From the NCBI RefSeq assembly GCF_054482525.1, contig NZ_CM137006.1: DNA of 64,000 bases, one strand, 5' to 3'. The notes beneath the pieces are model-generated. The model made no database searches. It was not told the DNA's origin and worked only from the letters and a program-made list of their open reading frames with translations. This document shows, piece after piece, positions 1,464 to 64,000 of the stretch. The position numbers and the translations under genes are program-made. Position 1 is the stretch's first letter; each line of letters starts with the position of its first letter.

Positions 1464-1561
1464 GCCGGATGCGGCGTGAACGCCTTATCCGGCCTACAAA
1501 AATCTTGCCAATTCAATATATTGCAGGACCACGTAGGCCTGATAAGCGTAGCGCATCAGGC
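1464..1561. repeat. REP pair with central IHF-like site (RIP/BIME-type element)
   Basis: gccggatgcggcgtgaacgccttatccggcctac ... aatcaatatattg ... gtaggcctgataagcgtagcgcatcaggc; a near-identical copy lies at 63293-63390. Confidence 0.8.
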
Positions 1562-1598: not shown

Positions 1599-2219
1599 AT
1601 GAAAACTACGCATACCGCCCTCCCCTTTGCAGGACATACGCTGCATTTTGTTGAGTTTGATCCGGCGAGTTTTCGCGAGCAGGATTTACTCTGGCTGCCG
1701 CACTACGCGCAACTGCAACACGCTGGACGTAAACGTAAAACAGAGCATTTAGCCGGACGGATCGCTGCAGTTTATGCGCTGCGGGAATATGGCTATAAAT
1801 GTGTGCCCGCAATCGGCGAGCTACGCCAACCTGTGTGGCCTGCGGAGGTATACGGCAGTATTAGCCACTGTGGGGCTACGGCATTAGCCGTGGTATCTCG
1901 TCAACCGATTGGCATTGATATCGAAGAGATTTTCTCTGTACAAACCGCAAGAGAATTGACAAACAACATTATTACACCAGCAGAACACGAGCGACTCGCA
2001 GAATGCGGTTTAACCTTTTCTCTGGCGCTGACACTGGCATTTTCCGCCAAAGAGAGCGCATTTAAGGCAAGCAAGATACAGGCCACTCAAGGTTTTCTGG
2101 ATTATCAGATAATTAGCTGGAATAAACAGCAGATCATCATTCGACTAGAGGATGAGCAGTTTGCTGTGCACTGGCAGATAAAAGAAAAAATAGTCATAAC
2201 GCTGTGCCAACACGATTAA
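1599..2219 (+). CDS. entD: Phosphopantetheinyl transferase EntD (enterobactin synthase activation)
   Basis: 206-codon ORF starting MKTTHTALPFAGHTLHFVEF, downstream of fepA as in K-12; track ORF 1449..2219 has an in-frame upstream extension. Confidence 0.88.
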   Translation: MKTTHTALPFAGHTLHFVEFDPASFREQDLLWLPHYAQLQHAGRKRKTEHLAGRIAAVYALREYGYKCVPAIGELRQPVWPAEVYGSISHCGATALAVVSRQPIGIDIEEIFSVQTARELTNNIITPAEHERLAECGLTFSLALTLAFSAKESAFKASKIQATQGFLDYQIISWNKQQIIIRLEDEQFAVHWQIKEKIVITLCQHD

Positions 2220-2329
2220 TTGACAACATCTGGTACGATTCGCCCGCAGCCATCACTGACCACGGGCGAAAGTGTAAAGCAGGTGCCTTACCATCCTGAC
2301 CTGACAACCGGATATGCGGGGATTACTCC

Positions 2330-3668
2330 CATAAGCGCTAACTTAAGGGTTGAACCATCTGAAGAATGCGACGCCTCGGTGCCTCGTTAAGACGATGCCT
2401 CGCGTTCTTCAATTGCGTTTTGTAGGCTGTCAGGGATACTGTCCCACGAATGGCCACCTGTAAGCTCCAGATGACCATTTTTGTTATTCTCCACAACGAG
2501 TTAGTTCTTCTTTTCGGATCCGGCACTTCTGGGGGGGAAATCCAGCGATGGCTGGATTATGTCGTCAATTAAAAATGCGGCGAGTAGATTAGCAAATATC
2601 CACGCTTTCGCGAGTTCAGGTTCCTTTGCACGCAAAGCATCCAGGTGCAGCAAACTTTTGAGCCGCTTAAAAGCCAGTTCAATTTGCCATCGCAGACGGT
2701 AACAATCAGCCACTTGCTCTGCTGAATATTCATCTTCCGGTAATGATGTTAGCAATAGCACATGGCCCGCTGCTTCCAGCGTTTCCGCCTGAACTACTCG
2801 TCCTTTTCGACGATTCTCGCTGAGCAGTCGGGTTTTACTGATTAATGCTTTTTCGGGAGGAAGTGATACGGCAATGAGACGTGCCGGAAAGGGAGCTCCG
2901 GCTTTTTTATTACCTGAATTGCCTATCATTACAGTGGTTTCACCGTTCTTACCGCAATCCAGCCCGCGCAGAAAACCCATCATGTCAAAGCGCATTCCTT
3001 CTGCAGTTAACCAGCGCAATCCTCGCCAGTGAACCCGGACGATATAATCAGCTTCTCCAAAAGCAAGTGAGCGGATACATTCGGGACGCGAACCGAATCC
3101 CCGGTCAGCAATGCGTATCTCGTCTGCCGTTTGCGCAAATCGGTCCAGCCGTTCAGCGTCTCTGCTGTCGGTTAGCTCAAAATCAGTGAACTGACAGGTA
3201 TGAGGATCATATCCCATATGTAGTCGCCATTCAGCGCTGCCGCCCCCGGGCGCACTGATTGCTGTTCCATCGACAAGACGCAATCTCTTTCCGCTTGTAC
3301 AACCCGTAACTGCGGCGCGTACAGCAAGTGTTTGTGCGGCAAGTATGCCAAACCAGTCGGCGGCATTCCGCAGCCGCTTCAGGAGAGCCACGTCAGATAA
3401 TGTTGCAACGTCATGGAGCTGAGCCCATGCAGTGACTTCACGTAATGACATCCCCCCGGGGCCGTAAGCCAGCCCCAGACGTAGCAGAGTTGCAGCATCA
3501 CGAATTTCGCGGCGGCGGGTTAGAGCCCCGGCATTACGTGCCGAAGTATCCAGTTCTTCGGGCTTACCAATATGGGCCAGAATTGCTGACCAGTTATCGT
3601 GAGAGTAATTCATCGGCACGTTAAATCATATCAGGCGTAATACCACAACCCTTAAGTTAGCGCTTATG
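2330..3668 (-). mobile_element. IS186 (IS4 family), copy 1, 1339 bp
   Basis: Terminal inverted repeats cataagcgctaacttaagggttg (2330-2352) and its reverse complement (3646-3668); flanked by direct repeat ggattactcc (10-bp target duplication) within a GGGG-N6-CCCC hotspot. Confidence 0.92.
2501..3619 (-). CDS. insL: IS186 transposase InsL
   Basis: 372-aa ORF MPMNYSHDNWSAILAHIGKPEEL... (canonical start probably at MNYSHD, 3613); identical protein to the copy-2 ORF. Confidence 0.92.
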   Translation of the reverse strand: MPMNYSHDNWSAILAHIGKPEELDTSARNAGALTRRREIRDAATLLRLGLAYGPGGMSLREVTAWAQLHDVATLSDVALLKRLRNAADWFGILAAQTLAVRAAVTGCTSGKRLRLVDGTAISAPGGGSAEWRLHMGYDPHTCQFTDFELTDSRDAERLDRFAQTADEIRIADRGFGSRPECIRSLAFGEADYIVRVHWRGLRWLTAEGMRFDMMGFLRGLDCGKNGETTVMIGNSGNKKAGAPFPARLIAVSLPPEKALISKTRLLSENRRKGRVVQAETLEAAGHVLLLTSLPEDEYSAEQVADCYRLRWQIELAFKRLKSLLHLDALRAKEPELAKAWIFANLLAAFLIDDIIQPSLDFPPRSAGSEKKN

Positions 3669-3689
3669 GGATTACTCCCCGCACAACGG

Positions 3690-3842
3690 CTACTTCTTCG
3701 GTTCGTAAGCGAGAACAGCCTTAAACTCAATATTACGTTCCTTCACCGTAAACTCACACAGCGAGTCGCGGACCAGAAGCGTAAATCCCAGCACCGTTAA
3801 ACACAGCACTATGACTGCCACAAGGGCATATTTCGTCAGCAT
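3690..3842 (-). CDS. Hok-family type I toxin (hokE-like paralog, locus 1), 50 aa
   Basis: [50 protein letters not shown]; single TM helix plus the conserved R-D-S-L-C-E motif of Hok/Gef peptides; stop 21 bp from the IS186 end. Confidence 0.85.
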
Positions 3843-3987
3843 GTTTATATTGCCTCCATGCGAAGAAGGGACTACCATCCGAGTTGTTGAGGTTCGGAGT
3901 GGCAGCCCCAGGATTGATAGAAATATCTCCTGGGGCTTCATCTTTCCAGACCTCAGAGTAAACCTGAAACCGGAAAGCTTCAGGCAC
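3754..3987 (-). CDS. mok-like overlapping reading frame (locus 1); canonical mok ATG is shifted into the hok frame here
   Basis: 77-aa track ORF in the mok frame from a GTG at 3987; the ATG that starts Mok in locus 2 (atgaagccccag) is in frame with hok in locus 1 because of a 1-nt indel, giving the 83-aa track ORF 3690..3941. Confidence 0.4.
3885..3945 (+). ncRNA. Putative Sok-type antisense RNA (locus 1)
   Basis: Plus-strand promoter-like TTGCCT (3850-3855), 17-bp spacer, TACCAT (3873-3878), antisense to the hok/mok leader; placement by analogy to K-12 sokE/hokE spacing. Ends are approximate. Confidence 0.35.
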
Positions 3988-4181
3988 CCGCTGTTATCTT
4001 ACCCTTCCTTAGCAAAATAACTGTTTATTTATACAGCTAGTCCTGTTTCGGACTTCTGTTGGCAACACTCGTTATTGCTCGTAAAACGACATCGCCCGCA
4101 GCCATTGCTGACCGCGGGCGAAAGTGTAAAGCAGGTGCCTTACCACCCTGACCTGACAACCGGATATGCGGGGATTACTCC

Positions 4182-5520
4182 CATAAGCGCTAACTTAAGG
4201 GTTGTGGTATTACGCCTGATATGATTTAACGTGCCGATGAATTACTCTCACGATAACTGGTCAGCAATTCTGGCCCATATTGGTAAGCCCGAAGAACTGG
4301 ATACTTCGGCACGTAATGCCGGGGCTCTAACCCGCCGCCGCGAAATTCGTGATGCTGCAACTCTGCTACGTCTGGGGCTGGCTTACGGCCCCGGGGGGAT
4401 GTCATTACGTGAAGTCACTGCATGGGCTCAGCTCCATGACGTTGCAACATTATCTGACGTGGCTCTCCTGAAGCGGCTGCGGAATGCCGCCGACTGGTTT
4501 GGCATACTTGCCGCACAAACACTTGCTGTACGCGCCGCAGTTACGGGTTGTACAAGCGGAAAGAGATTGCGTCTTGTCGATGGAACAGCAATCAGTGCGC
4601 CCGGGGGCGGCAGCGCTGAATGGCGACTACATATGGGATATGATCCTCATACCTGTCAGTTCACTGATTTTGAGCTAACCGACAGCAGAGACGCTGAACG
4701 GCTGGACCGATTTGCGCAAACGGCAGACGAGATACGCATTGCTGACCGGGGATTCGGTTCGCGTCCCGAATGTATCCGCTCACTTGCTTTTGGAGAAGCT
4801 GATTATATCGTCCGGGTTCACTGGCGAGGATTGCGCTGGTTAACTGCAGAAGGAATGCGCTTTGACATGATGGGTTTTCTGCGCGGGCTGGATTGCGGTA
4901 AGAACGGTGAAACCACTGTAATGATAGGCAATTCAGGTAATAAAAAAGCCGGAGCTCCCTTTCCGGCACGTCTCATTGCCGTATCACTTCCTCCCGAAAA
5001 AGCATTAATCAGTAAAACCCGACTGCTCAGCGAGAATCGTCGAAAAGGACGAGTAGTTCAGGCGGAAACGCTGGAAGCAGCGGGCCATGTGCTATTGCTA
5101 ACATCATTACCGGAAGATGAATATTCAGCAGAGCAAGTGGCTGATTGTTACCGTCTGCGATGGCAAATTGAACTGGCTTTTAAGCGGCTCAAAAGTTTGC
5201 TGCACCTGGATGCTTTGCGTGCAAAGGAACCTGAACTCGCGAAAGCGTGGATATTTGCTAATCTACTCGCCGCATTTTTAATTGACGACATAATCCAGCC
5301 ATCGCTGGATTTCCCCCCCAGAAGTGCCGGATCCGAAAAGAAGAACTAACTCGTTGTGGAGAATAACAAAAATGGTCATCTGGAGCTTACAGGTGGCCAT
5401 TCGTGGGACAGTATCCCTGACAGCCTACAAAACGCAATTGAAGAACGCGAGGCATCGTCTTAACGAGGCACCGAGGCGTCGCATTCTTCAGATGGTTCAA
5501 CCCTTAAGTTAGCGCTTATG
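4182..5520 (+). mobile_element. IS186 (IS4 family), copy 2, 1339 bp, inverted relative to copy 1
   Basis: Same 23-bp terminal inverted repeats (4182-4204 and 5498-5520); same ggattactcc flanking duplication in a second copy of the hok 3-prime region; internal ORFs are identical to copy 1. Confidence 0.92.
4231..5349 (+). CDS. insL: IS186 transposase InsL
   Basis: 372-aa ORF identical to the 2501..3619 protein. Confidence 0.92.
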   Translation: MPMNYSHDNWSAILAHIGKPEELDTSARNAGALTRRREIRDAATLLRLGLAYGPGGMSLREVTAWAQLHDVATLSDVALLKRLRNAADWFGILAAQTLAVRAAVTGCTSGKRLRLVDGTAISAPGGGSAEWRLHMGYDPHTCQFTDFELTDSRDAERLDRFAQTADEIRIADRGFGSRPECIRSLAFGEADYIVRVHWRGLRWLTAEGMRFDMMGFLRGLDCGKNGETTVMIGNSGNKKAGAPFPARLIAVSLPPEKALISKTRLLSENRRKGRVVQAETLEAAGHVLLLTSLPEDEYSAEQVADCYRLRWQIELAFKRLKSLLHLDALRAKEPELAKAWIFANLLAAFLIDDIIQPSLDFPPRSAGSEKKN

Positions 5521-5541
5521 GGATTACTCCCCGCACAACGG

Positions 5542-5694
5542 CTACTTCTTCGGTTCGTAAGCGAGAACAGCCTTAAACTCAATATTACGTTCCTTCACCG
5601 TAAACTCACACAGCGAGTCTCCGACCAGAAGCGTAAATCCCAGCACCGTCAAACACAGCACTATGACTGCCGCAAGGGCATATTTCGTCAGCAT
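5542..5694 (-). CDS. hokE: Hok-family type I toxin HokE-like (locus 2, adjacent to ybdK), 50 aa
   Basis: [50 protein letters not shown]; position next to ybdK matches K-12 hokE; has G where locus 1 and other Hok peptides have R. Confidence 0.8.
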
Positions 5695-5794
5695 GTTTAT
5701 ATTGCCTCCATGCGAAGAAGGGACTACCATCCAAATTGTTTGGGTTTGGAGTGGCAGCCCCAGGGTTGATAGAAATATCGTCCTGGGGCTTCAT
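5606..5794 (-). CDS. Mok (modulation of killing) overlapping reading frame, locus 2
   Basis: 62-aa [65 protein letters not shown] starting upstream of hok and ending inside it in a different frame, the canonical hok/mok arrangement. Confidence 0.55.
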
Positions 5795-5797
5795 CTT
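5737..5797 (+). ncRNA. sokE: Putative Sok-type antisense RNA (sokE-like, locus 2)
   Basis: Plus-strand TTGCCT (5702-5707), 17 bp, TACCAT (5725-5730); predicted transcript is antisense to the mok start region. Ends are approximate. Confidence 0.4.
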
Positions 5798-6125
5798 TCC
5801 AGACCTCAGAGTAAACCTGAAACCGGAAAGCTTCAGGCACCCGCCGTTATCTTACCCTTCCTTAGCAAAATGGCTGTTTATTTATACAGTAAGTCCTGTT
5901 TCGGACTTCTCAATCCTCATTTGATCAACTGAAGCTGAACCCGTTTTTTTCTGCATGCCTCAATCGTCAAAATTCTTCGCCACCAGTCCGCACTGCCATA
6001 ACTTGTCATATTGCAAAATGTAGCCAATTTGCTTCAGTCACCATCATCAAAAAAAAACATTCCAGAACTTCCGCATCTCGCCCAGTCGCTCCCACTTCTA
6101 TACTGAATAGAAAACGCCAACATAA

Positions 6126-27415: not shown

Positions 27416-27492
27416 TGGCGCGCCCTGCAGGATTCGAACCTGCGGCCCACGACTTAGAAGGTCGTTGCTCTATCCAACTGAGCTAAGGGCGC
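27416..27492 (-). tRNA. argU: tRNA-Arg (anticodon UCU), argU
   Basis: Reverse complement reads GCGCCCTTAGCTCAGTTGGATAGAGCAACGACCTTCTAAGTCGTGGGCCGCAGGTTCGAATCCTGCAGGGCGCGCCA; cloverleaf with TCT anticodon and encoded CCA end. Confidence 0.95.
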
Positions 27493-40694: not shown

Positions 40695-40722
40695 CCTGGT
40701 GCTCATTTGATTGCCGGATGCG

Positions 40723-40792
40723 GCGTGAACGCCTTATCCGACCTGTGGAAACAGTGATATTTCCAGGTCGGATAATCAGCATCGCATCAGGC
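40723..40792. repeat. REP pair (BIME) downstream of purK
   Basis: gccggatgcggcgtgaacgccttatccg ... cggataatcagcatcgcatcaggc. Confidence 0.7.
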
Positions 40793-49662: not shown

Positions 49663-49704
49663 GTCATACCACTCGCCTGATTATTTTTAGCTATGTTGGA
49701 TTTT

Positions 49705-49731
49705 GCCACGGTTTATACCGTGGCTTTTTTT
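49705..49731 (+). terminator. Rho-independent terminator after allE
   Basis: Stem gccacgg / ccgtggc followed by a T-run. Confidence 0.7.
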
Positions 49732-49791
49732 GCGGTAAATTCAGGTAAAAAACGGATGCGGGATAAAATGCATCCACTCTAATGGCAAGAG

Positions 49792-62754: not shown

Positions 62755-62784
62755 TATAAAAAAACCGACATGACAGTCGGTTTT
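62755..62784. terminator. Bidirectional rho-independent terminator downstream of selU
   Basis: A-run, stem ccgac / gtcgg with loop atgaca, then a T-run; a degenerate second copy lies at 63236-63261. Confidence 0.8.
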
Positions 62785-62845
62785 TTTATTTTTTCCGCCC
62801 AAGACTTGGTGGTTCCGGGCAGAAATGAAACAGTCCTCATCTAGC
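62755..62845 (-). ncRNA. Candidate small antisense RNA (putative type I antitoxin)
   Basis: Near-consensus sigma-70 promoter on the minus strand (-35 TTGAAT at 62880-62875, 17-bp spacer, -10 TATAAT at 62857-62852), predicted start about 62845, ending at the 62755-62784 terminator; contains gctagatgaggactg, complementary to cagtcctcatctagc at 63017-63031 upstream of the small ORF. Confidence 0.45.
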
Positions 62846-63105
62846 AAGTGAATTATAAGTCAGGATGCCTACATATTCAAACAGCTATGTTGGCGATACA
62901 ATCCCGACGCTAGTAGTGATACTGCCTCAAGGGATTACCGCAGTGCGGAAAAGTACTTTTAAGTCCTGGTCAGGATACAGGTGGTGCTGATTCTGGTGCT
63001 CTAATTTGGAGAGAGGCAGTCCTCATCTAGCACATGAAGAAAATCATAGTTACAGGCAACGTAAGGGTAAGCTGTGATTGTCTTTCTCCCTTAAGGGAGC
63101 AACGG

Positions 63106-63189
63106 ATGAAAACTTTTCTCGATAAAGTTCTCATCGTTCTTAAGGCGCTAATCGCGCTGCTGGAACTGATCCGTCAGTTTATTGAATAA
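63106..63189 (+). CDS. Candidate 27-aa single-helix membrane peptide (putative type I toxin, DinQ/ZorO-like)
   Basis: ATG preceded by GGGAG; MKTFLDKVLIVLKALIALLELIRQFIE is one amphipathic/hydrophobic helix; followed by hairpin aaggccgaagg/ccttcggcctt; shares ALIALLELIR with E. coli DinQ as recalled from memory. Confidence 0.5.
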   Translation: MKTFLDKVLIVLKALIALLELIRQFIE

Positions 63190-63292
63190 CTGAGGAAACG
63201 TAGCTAAGGCCGAAGGTTTACCACCTTCGGCCTTTAAAAAAACCGACATGACAGTTGGTTTCATATTTATTGCCAAAATGCACACTGTTCAT

Positions 63293-63390
63293 GCCAGATG
63301 CGGCGTAAACGCCTTATCCGGCCTACACAATCTTGCAAAATCAATATATTGCACGATCCTCGTAGGCCTGATAAGCGTAGCGCATCAGGC
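63293..63390. repeat. REP pair with central IHF-like site (RIP/BIME-type element)
   Basis: gccagatgcggcgtaaacgccttatccggcctac ... aatcaatatattg ... gtaggcctgataagcgtagcgcatcaggc; near-identical to the element at 1464-1561. Confidence 0.8.
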
Positions 63391-63406
63391 AATCTAACGC
63401 CTGTCA

Positions 63407-64000
63407 TCATCCCGCAAACTGCCTGAACAGCGCCTTACCCTTAACCAGTCGCGCACCCAGCCAGCCGCCGAAAAGCGACAGCAGCAGCGCACCGCTGCAC
63501 GGCAGCACAATCCACAATCGCCAGTCTGGCTCCCACGGGAAATCAAACACTTTCGCCTGCAACACTGCCAGCGCCGTTTCCGCACCAATTGCGGCTACCA
63601 GGCCAGAAACAAACCCAAGCATGGCGAACTCACACCACAATGTCGTGCGCAGCAGTTTTTTCCCCGCTCCGAGTGTGCGCCACACCACCAGCTCCTGATG
63701 ACGCTGACGCATTCCCACCTGCACCTGTGCCAGCAACAGCAACATACCGCAGGCGGTGACCAGCACCACCATCACTTCCAGCGCCCGACTTACCTGCTCC
63801 AGCACCTGGCCGACCTGTTTTAAAATCGCGCCAATATCTAACAGGCTAATTGTCGGGAACTGGCGGTTGAGTTGCGTCAACATGCCGTTGCCATTCTCCC
63901 AGCGGAAACTGGTAAGCCAACTCTGCGGTTGTCCGTCTAATGCCCCTTCAGGGAAAATAAAATAGAAATTAGGCCGCAGACTTTCCCAGTCCACTTTGCG
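63407..64000 (-). CDS. ybbP: ABC transporter permease YbbP (FtsX-like), C-terminal part; gene continues beyond the window end
   Basis: Open frame to the window edge; hydrophobic C-terminal segment with stop at 63407. Confidence 0.8.
   Translation of the reverse strand, partial: RKVDWESLRPNFYFIFPEGALDGQPQSWLTSFRWENGNGMLTQLNRQFPTISLLDIGAILKQVGQVLEQVSRALEVMVVLVTACGMLLLLAQVQVGMRQRHQELVVWRTLGAGKKLLRTTLWCEFAMLGFVSGLVAAIGAETALAVLQAKVFDFPWEPDWRLWIVLPCSGALLLSLFGGWLGARLVKGKALFRQFAG

Follow-up and report, generated by a model that had tools for sequence, protein, structure and literature searches.

The window analyzed here, a 64,000-nt stretch of DNA, carries one 98-nt element at positions 1464 to 1561 and another at 63293 to 63390 (referred to as element 1 and element 2), and the pair raises the question of why two elements at separate loci resemble each other. 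The initial annotation described them as near-identical REP-IHF-REP elements of the dispersed RIP/BIME family and took the similarity of their spacers as a sign of recent spread or gene conversion. An alignment of the two elements and a genome-wide count of the subfamily were proposed as checks.

Both elements were found at these positions with the anatomy described. They are co-linear on the same strand, and each consists of a 34-nt Y REP arm and a 29-nt Z1 REP arm in inverted orientation around a linker, present as one unit per locus and not as a tandem array. A degenerate Y-REP pattern matched only the two elements and one lone REP (40713-40746) in the 64-kb window and gave no match in 100 shuffles. 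The inner-arm 14-mer was found at 4 sites in the window, compared with 0.5 expected. The proposed alignment gave 90 identical columns of 99 over the whole pair when computed globally, and the identity was unevenly distributed. The Y arms (1464-1497 versus 63293-63326) were identical at 32 of 34 positions and the Z1 arms (1533-1561 versus 63362-63390) at all 29, whereas the 35-nt linkers, whose alignment of 36 columns includes two 1-nt indels, agreed at only 29 of these (81%). Thus, the term near-identical suits the arms and is too strong for the spacer. Likewise, the IHF core quoted for both spacers, aatcaatatattg, was present exactly in element 2 (63339-63351), but element 1 has ATTCAATATATTG in its place. 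The element 1 core, with one mismatch, represents the majority state in the family sample, and the element 2 core is the exact consensus; the A-tract upstream of the core is broken in element 2 (ACACAA). The IHF consensus WATCAANNNNTTR taken alone matched the window 4 times against 2.7 expected, which is not above chance.

The similarity reached past the 98 nt into flanks that are conserved in the family, as seen in a 38-copy flank profile (family consensus TGCGCnTTGTTCAT for the 5' flank and AATTTTGCGTTTGTCA for the 3' flank). This conservation outside the 98 nt indicates that the true units, 1450-1577 and 63279-63406, are about 128 nt long. With a profile HMM of the family alignment, nhmmer matched both units over the full model, with 130.7 bits for the first and 125.7 bits for the second. 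Such elements are better annotated as BIME-1 units of about 128 nt than as 98-nt elements. The features of the two units are as follows.

1450-1463, + strand: conserved 5' flank of element 1, TGCGCGTCGTTCAT (family consensus as above), from the 38-copy flank profile, the family alignment, and the nhmmer envelope 1450-1577
1464-1497, + strand: Y-type REP of element 1, GCCGGATGCGGCGTGAACGCCTTATCCGGCCTAC, a pattern match with 0 mismatches that includes the REPIN seed 21-mer GATGCGGCGTGAACGCCTTAT
1498-1532, + strand: L linker of element 1, 35 nt, from the sequence, the family alignment, and the Rfam RF02751 match at 1499-1540
1498-1502, + strand: A-tract within the element 1 linker, from the sequence
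1511-1523, + strand: IHF-type core of element 1, ATTCAATATATTG, with 1 mismatch to WATCAANNNNTTR
1533-1561, + strand: Z1-type REP of element 1, GTAGGCCTGATAAGCGTAGCGCATCAGGC, inverted relative to the Y REP, with which it forms the predicted long hairpin
1562-1577, + strand: conserved T-rich 3' flank of element 1, AGTTTTGTGTTTGTCA, from the flank profile and the family alignment, ending 21 nt upstream of the entD ATG
63279-63292, + strand: conserved 5' flank of element 2, TGCACACTGTTCAT, from the flank profile, the family alignment, and nhmmer
63293-63326, + strand: Y-type REP of element 2, with 2 substitutions relative to element 1, from the alignment and the pattern match
63327-63361, + strand: L linker of element 2, 35 nt, with the Rfam ES036 match at 63327-63369
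63339-63351, + strand: perfect IHF consensus of element 2, AATCAATATATTG, an exact match to WATCAANNNNTTR
63362-63390, + strand: Z1-type REP of element 2, identical to that of element 1, from the alignment
63391-63406, + strand: 3' flank of element 2, AATCTAACGCCTGTCA, from the flank profile; it abuts the ybbP stop codon, with the same arrangement in E. albertii (locus L074)

Both elements are BIME-1 (RIP/RIB) members composed of a Y REP, an L linker of about 35 nt, and a Z1 REP. The short 29-nt arm is probably Z1 and not Z2, as judged from the consensus sequences of these REP types. The name BIME-1 belongs to the Gilson/Bachellier nomenclature, and its outer flanks are named "A" and "B." The synonym RIB is reportedly that of Boccard and Prentki from 1993, and the synonym RIP is said to be that of Oppenheim et al. 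from the same year. The published definition of BIME-1 comprises z1 and y REPs joined by a well-conserved L linker, often with an IHF site (PMC3333891). The anatomy of both elements matches this definition, and both fit an alignment of 35 to 38 copies, which confirms their assignment to the dispersed RIP/BIME family. The elements and their similarity are already known biology, that is, textbook E. coli repeats.

To describe the family, species-representative genomes were scanned for two inner REP ends 12 to 42 nt apart, which gave at least 120 loci. The matches listed came mostly from E. albertii, Citrobacter spp., and a Pseudocitrobacter MAG, with the E. coli representative outside the sample. 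Among the 134 REP-pair matches listed, the inner-arm spacing was bimodal (12 to 27 nt versus 33 to 36 nt), and both elements fell into the 33- to 36-nt L class. Family alignments were made from 35 to 38 copies from E. albertii, one Pseudocitrobacter MAG, and the window, and gave the consensus GCCGGATGCGGCGTGAACGCCTTATCCGGCCTAC for the Y arm, AAAATCnTGCAAATTCAATATATTGCAGnAAnCnT for the linker, and GTAGGCCTGATAAGCGTAGCGCATCAGGCA for the Z1 arm. The arms were largely invariant, and the linker had a conserved core, GCAAATTCAATATATTGCAG, with a per-column conservation of mostly 70 to 100%, and about 8 variable nt on each side of it. The proposed genome-wide count was made with a consensus L-linker 49-mer (the linker and 7 nt of each arm), which occurred at a median of at least 30 places per genome and in 5,425 of 5,426 complete E. 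coli genomes. The E. albertii representative carried at least 27 loci by an exact-arm pattern and at least 30 copies when a four-unit tandem array was counted. In four random 50-kb pieces of the PCN033 genome (200 kb), nhmmer found no further full BIME-1 and only lone REPs and other BIME types. The tandem array in E. albertii (locus L042:6953-7497) comprises four BIME-1-like units at a spacing of about 147 nt, in contrast to the single occurrence described for BIME-1. The scan also returned exact enterobacterial REP-pair matches on short contigs labeled Desulfosporosinus (L076), Bacteroidales MAG (L077), and Desulfonatronum MAG (L079); our guess is that the REP pairs in these nonenterobacterial assemblies are contamination.

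The placement of element 1 between fepA and entD and of element 2 adjacent to ybbP agreed with the RefSeq annotation of near-identical strains. The window is E. coli sequence: element 1 was 100% identical in Nissle 1917, ATCC 11775, and many other strains, the right end of the window was 100% identical to strain PCN033, and no annotated gene crosses either element. Element 1 is bordered by the fepA stop (1424) on one side and by the entD start (1599, as placed by the Nissle annotation) on the other; fepA and entD are both on the + strand in the RefSeq annotation of near-identical strains. Element 1 begins 39 nt past the fepA stop, and 21 nt separate its end from the entD start. It is located 3' of fepA and 21 to 37 nt upstream of the same-strand entD, in an inter-cistronic position inside the operon and not where a transcription unit ends. 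The NC_000913.3 feature table has no REP/RIP repeat features for the element regions, and a full-text literature search combining fepA, entD, and REP returned nothing. Downstream of entD, at 2200-5943, the window carries a hokE/sok locus as two tandem units of about 1,852 bp with Rfam sok matches at 3834-3989 and 5686-5842. An IS186/IS421-type element sits in each unit, with one GGGATTACTCCC target common to both. Between these IS copies, at 2315-3683 and 4167-5535, identity is 100% and the orientation is opposite, whereas the surrounding unit sequence is only about 96% identical. In K-12, a single unit carries IS186B, Nissle has one hokE without an IS, and the two-unit layout was found in 52 of 5,426 E. 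coli genomes. Two further Rfam matches in the window, to the enterobacterial sRNA STnc480 (49669-49735, − strand, 84.9 bits) and to a tRNA gene (27419-27492, − strand), are unrelated to the elements.

Element 2 is located between the convergent 3' ends of a dinQ-like open reading frame (63034-63189, + strand) and ybbP, whose stop codon on the − strand is at 63407-63409. The Z1 stem begins 15 to 16 nt past this stop codon, and the spacing is the same in E. albertii. K-12, which has neither element 2 nor the dinQ-like locus, diverges from the window right after the tandem stop codons of ybbP (TCATCA) and continues at this junction (L004:4780-5300) with AT-rich intergenic sequence leading to rhsD. 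The K-12-type junction was present in at least 2,892 of 5,426 E. coli genomes, and the window-type junction (63391-63409) was present in about 1,124 to 1,317. The region between mnmH and ybbP (62756-63274) holds a second dinQ/agrB-like type I toxin-antitoxin locus. Its toxin open reading frame has 51 codons (PGAP names it dinQ in PCN033), and a match to Rfam AgrB lies within the locus at 62756-62844 on the − strand. The locus is bracketed by 40-nt direct repeats that are 83% identical and have a terminator-like hairpin (62757-62796 and 63235-63274). It is absent at the E. albertii ybbP site, and K-12 has the rhsD region instead.

BIME-1 elements may be polar with respect to their neighbors. 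Of the 29 cases that could be resolved among the sampled copies (loci L032-L123 and the window), 27 had the Z1 side with its T-rich flank toward the 3' end of a gene reading inward and 2 had it toward a gene start, and the Y side was unbiased (16:14); the neighboring genes were taken from crude greedy calls of nonoverlapping open reading frames, which missed entD, so this orientation bias is approximate. By annotation, element 2 has the typical orientation and element 1 has the minority one, with its Z1 side toward the entD start, as a further case beside those 2. Such strong polarity could reflect a strand-specific, RNA-level role of BIME-1, in which the inverted, intra-operonic element 1 would act differently, either as a structured leader limiting entD or as the source of an ES036-type RNA. 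We consider this proposal tentative and rather unlikely.

For either strand of either element, folding predicted one long, imperfect hairpin: the Y arm is base-paired to the Z1 arm, and the TGCAA and TTGCA halves of the linker are paired to each other. The predicted RNA hairpins had energies of −43.5 to −49.3 kcal/mol with z scores of −4.3 to −6.7, and no shuffled sequence was as stable. Compensatory changes in the linker flanks had been suspected by eye and were not borne out by a swap test of the right flanks, in which the variable flanks showed no copy-specific complementarity (−15.95 kcal/mol for a copy's own flanks versus −15.80 kcal/mol for chimeric ones, with 1,548 of 5,000 permutations as good). 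RNAalifold found no informative covariation and returned only the invariant Y:Z1 pairs, with a covariation term of 0.13. A conserved IHF-type core with an upstream A-tract and no informative covariation fits a protein-binding core better than an RNA structure of the linker. A simple consensus scan detected no terminator-like site inside either element.

REPs are reported to act in transcription termination and mRNA stabilization and to bind IHF, Pol I, and gyrase (PMC3333891, PMC2817692). By analogy with the family, two levels of action can be proposed. At the DNA level, IHF would bind and bend the linker between the two REPs. At the RNA level, the transcribed element would fold into the stable long hairpin, so that the upstream message is protected from 3' exonucleases and read-through is attenuated. 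On a transcript shared by the two genes, element 1 might in this way favor fepA over entD, which lies downstream; element 2 would mark the point at which the 3' ends of ybbP and the dinQ-like gene converge. A REP located less than 16 nt from a stop codon can lower the translation of the upstream gene (summarized in PMC12306157), and the Z1 stem of element 2, 15 to 16 nt past the ybbP stop, is at the edge of this published distance rule. Several features weigh against such a role, namely, the mismatched core, minority orientation, and intra-operonic position of element 1, the broken A-tract of element 2, and the lack of a terminator-like site within both in the consensus scan.

The resemblance of the two elements was then weighed against several explanations. 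Chance or a low-complexity artifact can be dismissed: the bare IHF consensus is indeed not enriched in the window, but the pair shares 98 nt at 91% identity, the REP pattern did not occur in any shuffle, and dozens of family copies exist per genome. A recent transposition or gene conversion event, in which one element was copied from the other (e.g., by RAYT/TnpA-REP-mediated REPIN duplication) or the pair was homogenized, is very unlikely, even though several observations point in its direction. BIME-1 has the REP-doublet architecture of REPINs, and BIMEs are cleaved and recombined in vitro by TnpA-REP (PMC3333891). The pair was also more similar than usual, at 91% overall against a mean of 85% (standard deviation, 3%) and at 81% against 68% in the linker, which places it in the top 1 to 3% of E. 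albertii pairs, and the elements agree at three of the four highly variable linker columns. Given this level of identity, elements 1 and 2 may have a somewhat closer-than-average relationship. However, a linker-centered 51-mer of element 1 was found in 5,326 of 5,426 E. coli genomes (98%) at one place each (median, 1; maximum, 2), so that this element is essentially fixed at fepA-entD across the species; its K-12 copy has one substitution relative to the window. The corresponding 51-mer of element 2 was found in 1,124 of the 5,426 genomes, also at one place each (maximum, 1), and the two 51-mers never cross-hit in these 5,326 and 1,124 genomes. A single place per genome without cross-hits indicates that the linkers are locus-specific signatures and that there was no burst of near-identical copies. 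In addition, a positional ortholog of element 2 adjoins ybbP in E. albertii and is also its closest linker match (83%) among the copies compared, which indicates that element 2 predates the species split. The differences between the elements argue against conversion as well. The distance to the family consensus is 4 positions for element 1 and 7 for element 2 (family mean, 7.4), and the 9 differences between the elements are close to the sum of these distances (4 + 7), as in a star-like pattern. Only one non-consensus state is common to both; it occurs in about a third of the copies and is polymorphic at the element 1 locus (K-12 versus the window). Moreover, copies at other loci and in other species were as close or closer to element 1 than element 2 was (91%): the E. 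coli copies at ybiU-ybiT and lafA-fliD were 95% and 91% identical to it, both having been picked by a consensus search and thus biased toward consensus-like sequences, and copies in E. albertii and Pseudocitrobacter were up to 92% identical. The similarity is therefore attributed to the position of both elements near a conserved family consensus. Transposition of REPINs at rates of about 1e-8 and their maintenance for millions of years (PMC8049555) fit this picture of old copies. Thus, recent spread or gene conversion, as proposed from spacer similarity, is not supported, in view of the single-copy linkers, the element 2 ortholog, the one shared non-consensus state, and the equally close other copies. 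Elements 1 and 2 are very probably old, vertically inherited BIME-1 members, each single copy at its locus, that are alike through the conserved family consensus and not through a recent event linking them. With its locus-specific linker, each copy can serve as a stable marker of position, and element 2 marks the ancestral ybbP-mnmH junction, in whose place genomes of the K-12 type have the junction leading into the rhsD region.

A different reading concerns the nature of the linkers, which might encode discrete trans-regulator sRNAs of the ES036/CssrF family and not DNA or mRNA structural elements. Both linkers exceeded the gathering score (37.6) of the Rfam model RF02751 (ES036, CssrF; 43 nt) on the + strand, with 42.2 bits at 1499-1540 and 40.3 bits at 63327-63369. 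CssrF has been seen by northern blotting as an RNA of about 290 nt from the dacB/yhbZ region of Shigella flexneri (PMC3071730). However, this 43-nt model also matched 10 of 20 other repeat-bearing loci (L043, L055, L058, L060, L064, L072, L113, L121, L122, and L123), always on the Y-to-Z1 strand. A model that matches many repeat loci in effect describes the L linker of BIME-1 and not one gene. Furthermore, a consensus scan found no sigma-70-like promoter beside either element, and the variable linker positions lack copy-specific complementarity, as seen in the permutations above. In most copies, the neighboring gene reads in from the Z1 side and would transcribe the strand opposite to ES036. 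An sRNA function of the linkers is consequently very unlikely, and RF02751 matches just above the threshold should not be counted as independent sRNA genes in automated annotation. The reading of both elements as old BIME-1 members is retained.

Next, the elements were compared with known systems. In the comparison with Rfam RF02751, both linkers score above the gathering threshold across the full 43-nt model, and the model matches the linker at many loci. REPINs, which are mobilized by RAYT/TnpA-REP, share the inverted REP doublet with a spacer, and the E. coli REPIN seed 21-mer GATGCGGCGTGAACGCCTTAT (PMC8049555) occurred exactly in the Y arm of element 1 and with a 1-nt difference in that of element 2. 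In contrast to REPINs, elements 1 and 2 carry no sign of recent mobility, as judged from the single-copy status of the linkers and from orthology. BIME-2 elements and atypical BIMEs are also intergenic and composed of REPs in alternating orientation, but BIME-2 differs in having the longer Z2 REPs, short S/s/l/r linkers, tandem arrays, and no described conserved IHF linker. BIME-2 also binds gyrase more strongly than BIME-1 (PMC1475751). One other REP pair in the window, at 40713-40790, joins a Y-type REP to a degenerate partner through an 18-nt linker; the usual CTAC/GTAG ends are changed to CTGT/CAGG with complementarity kept. This pair is not a BIME-1 and is nearer to BIME-2 or atypical BIMEs. 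The two elements correspond most fully to BIME-1/RIB/RIP, with which they share inverted Y and Z1 REPs, a linker of about 35 nt with an IHF-type core, a single unit, an extragenic location 3' of genes, and conserved outer flanks. None of the differences from BIME-1 is essential: element 1 is intra-operonic, has the minority orientation, and carries a core with 1 mismatch, and element 2 combines a perfect core with a disrupted A-tract.
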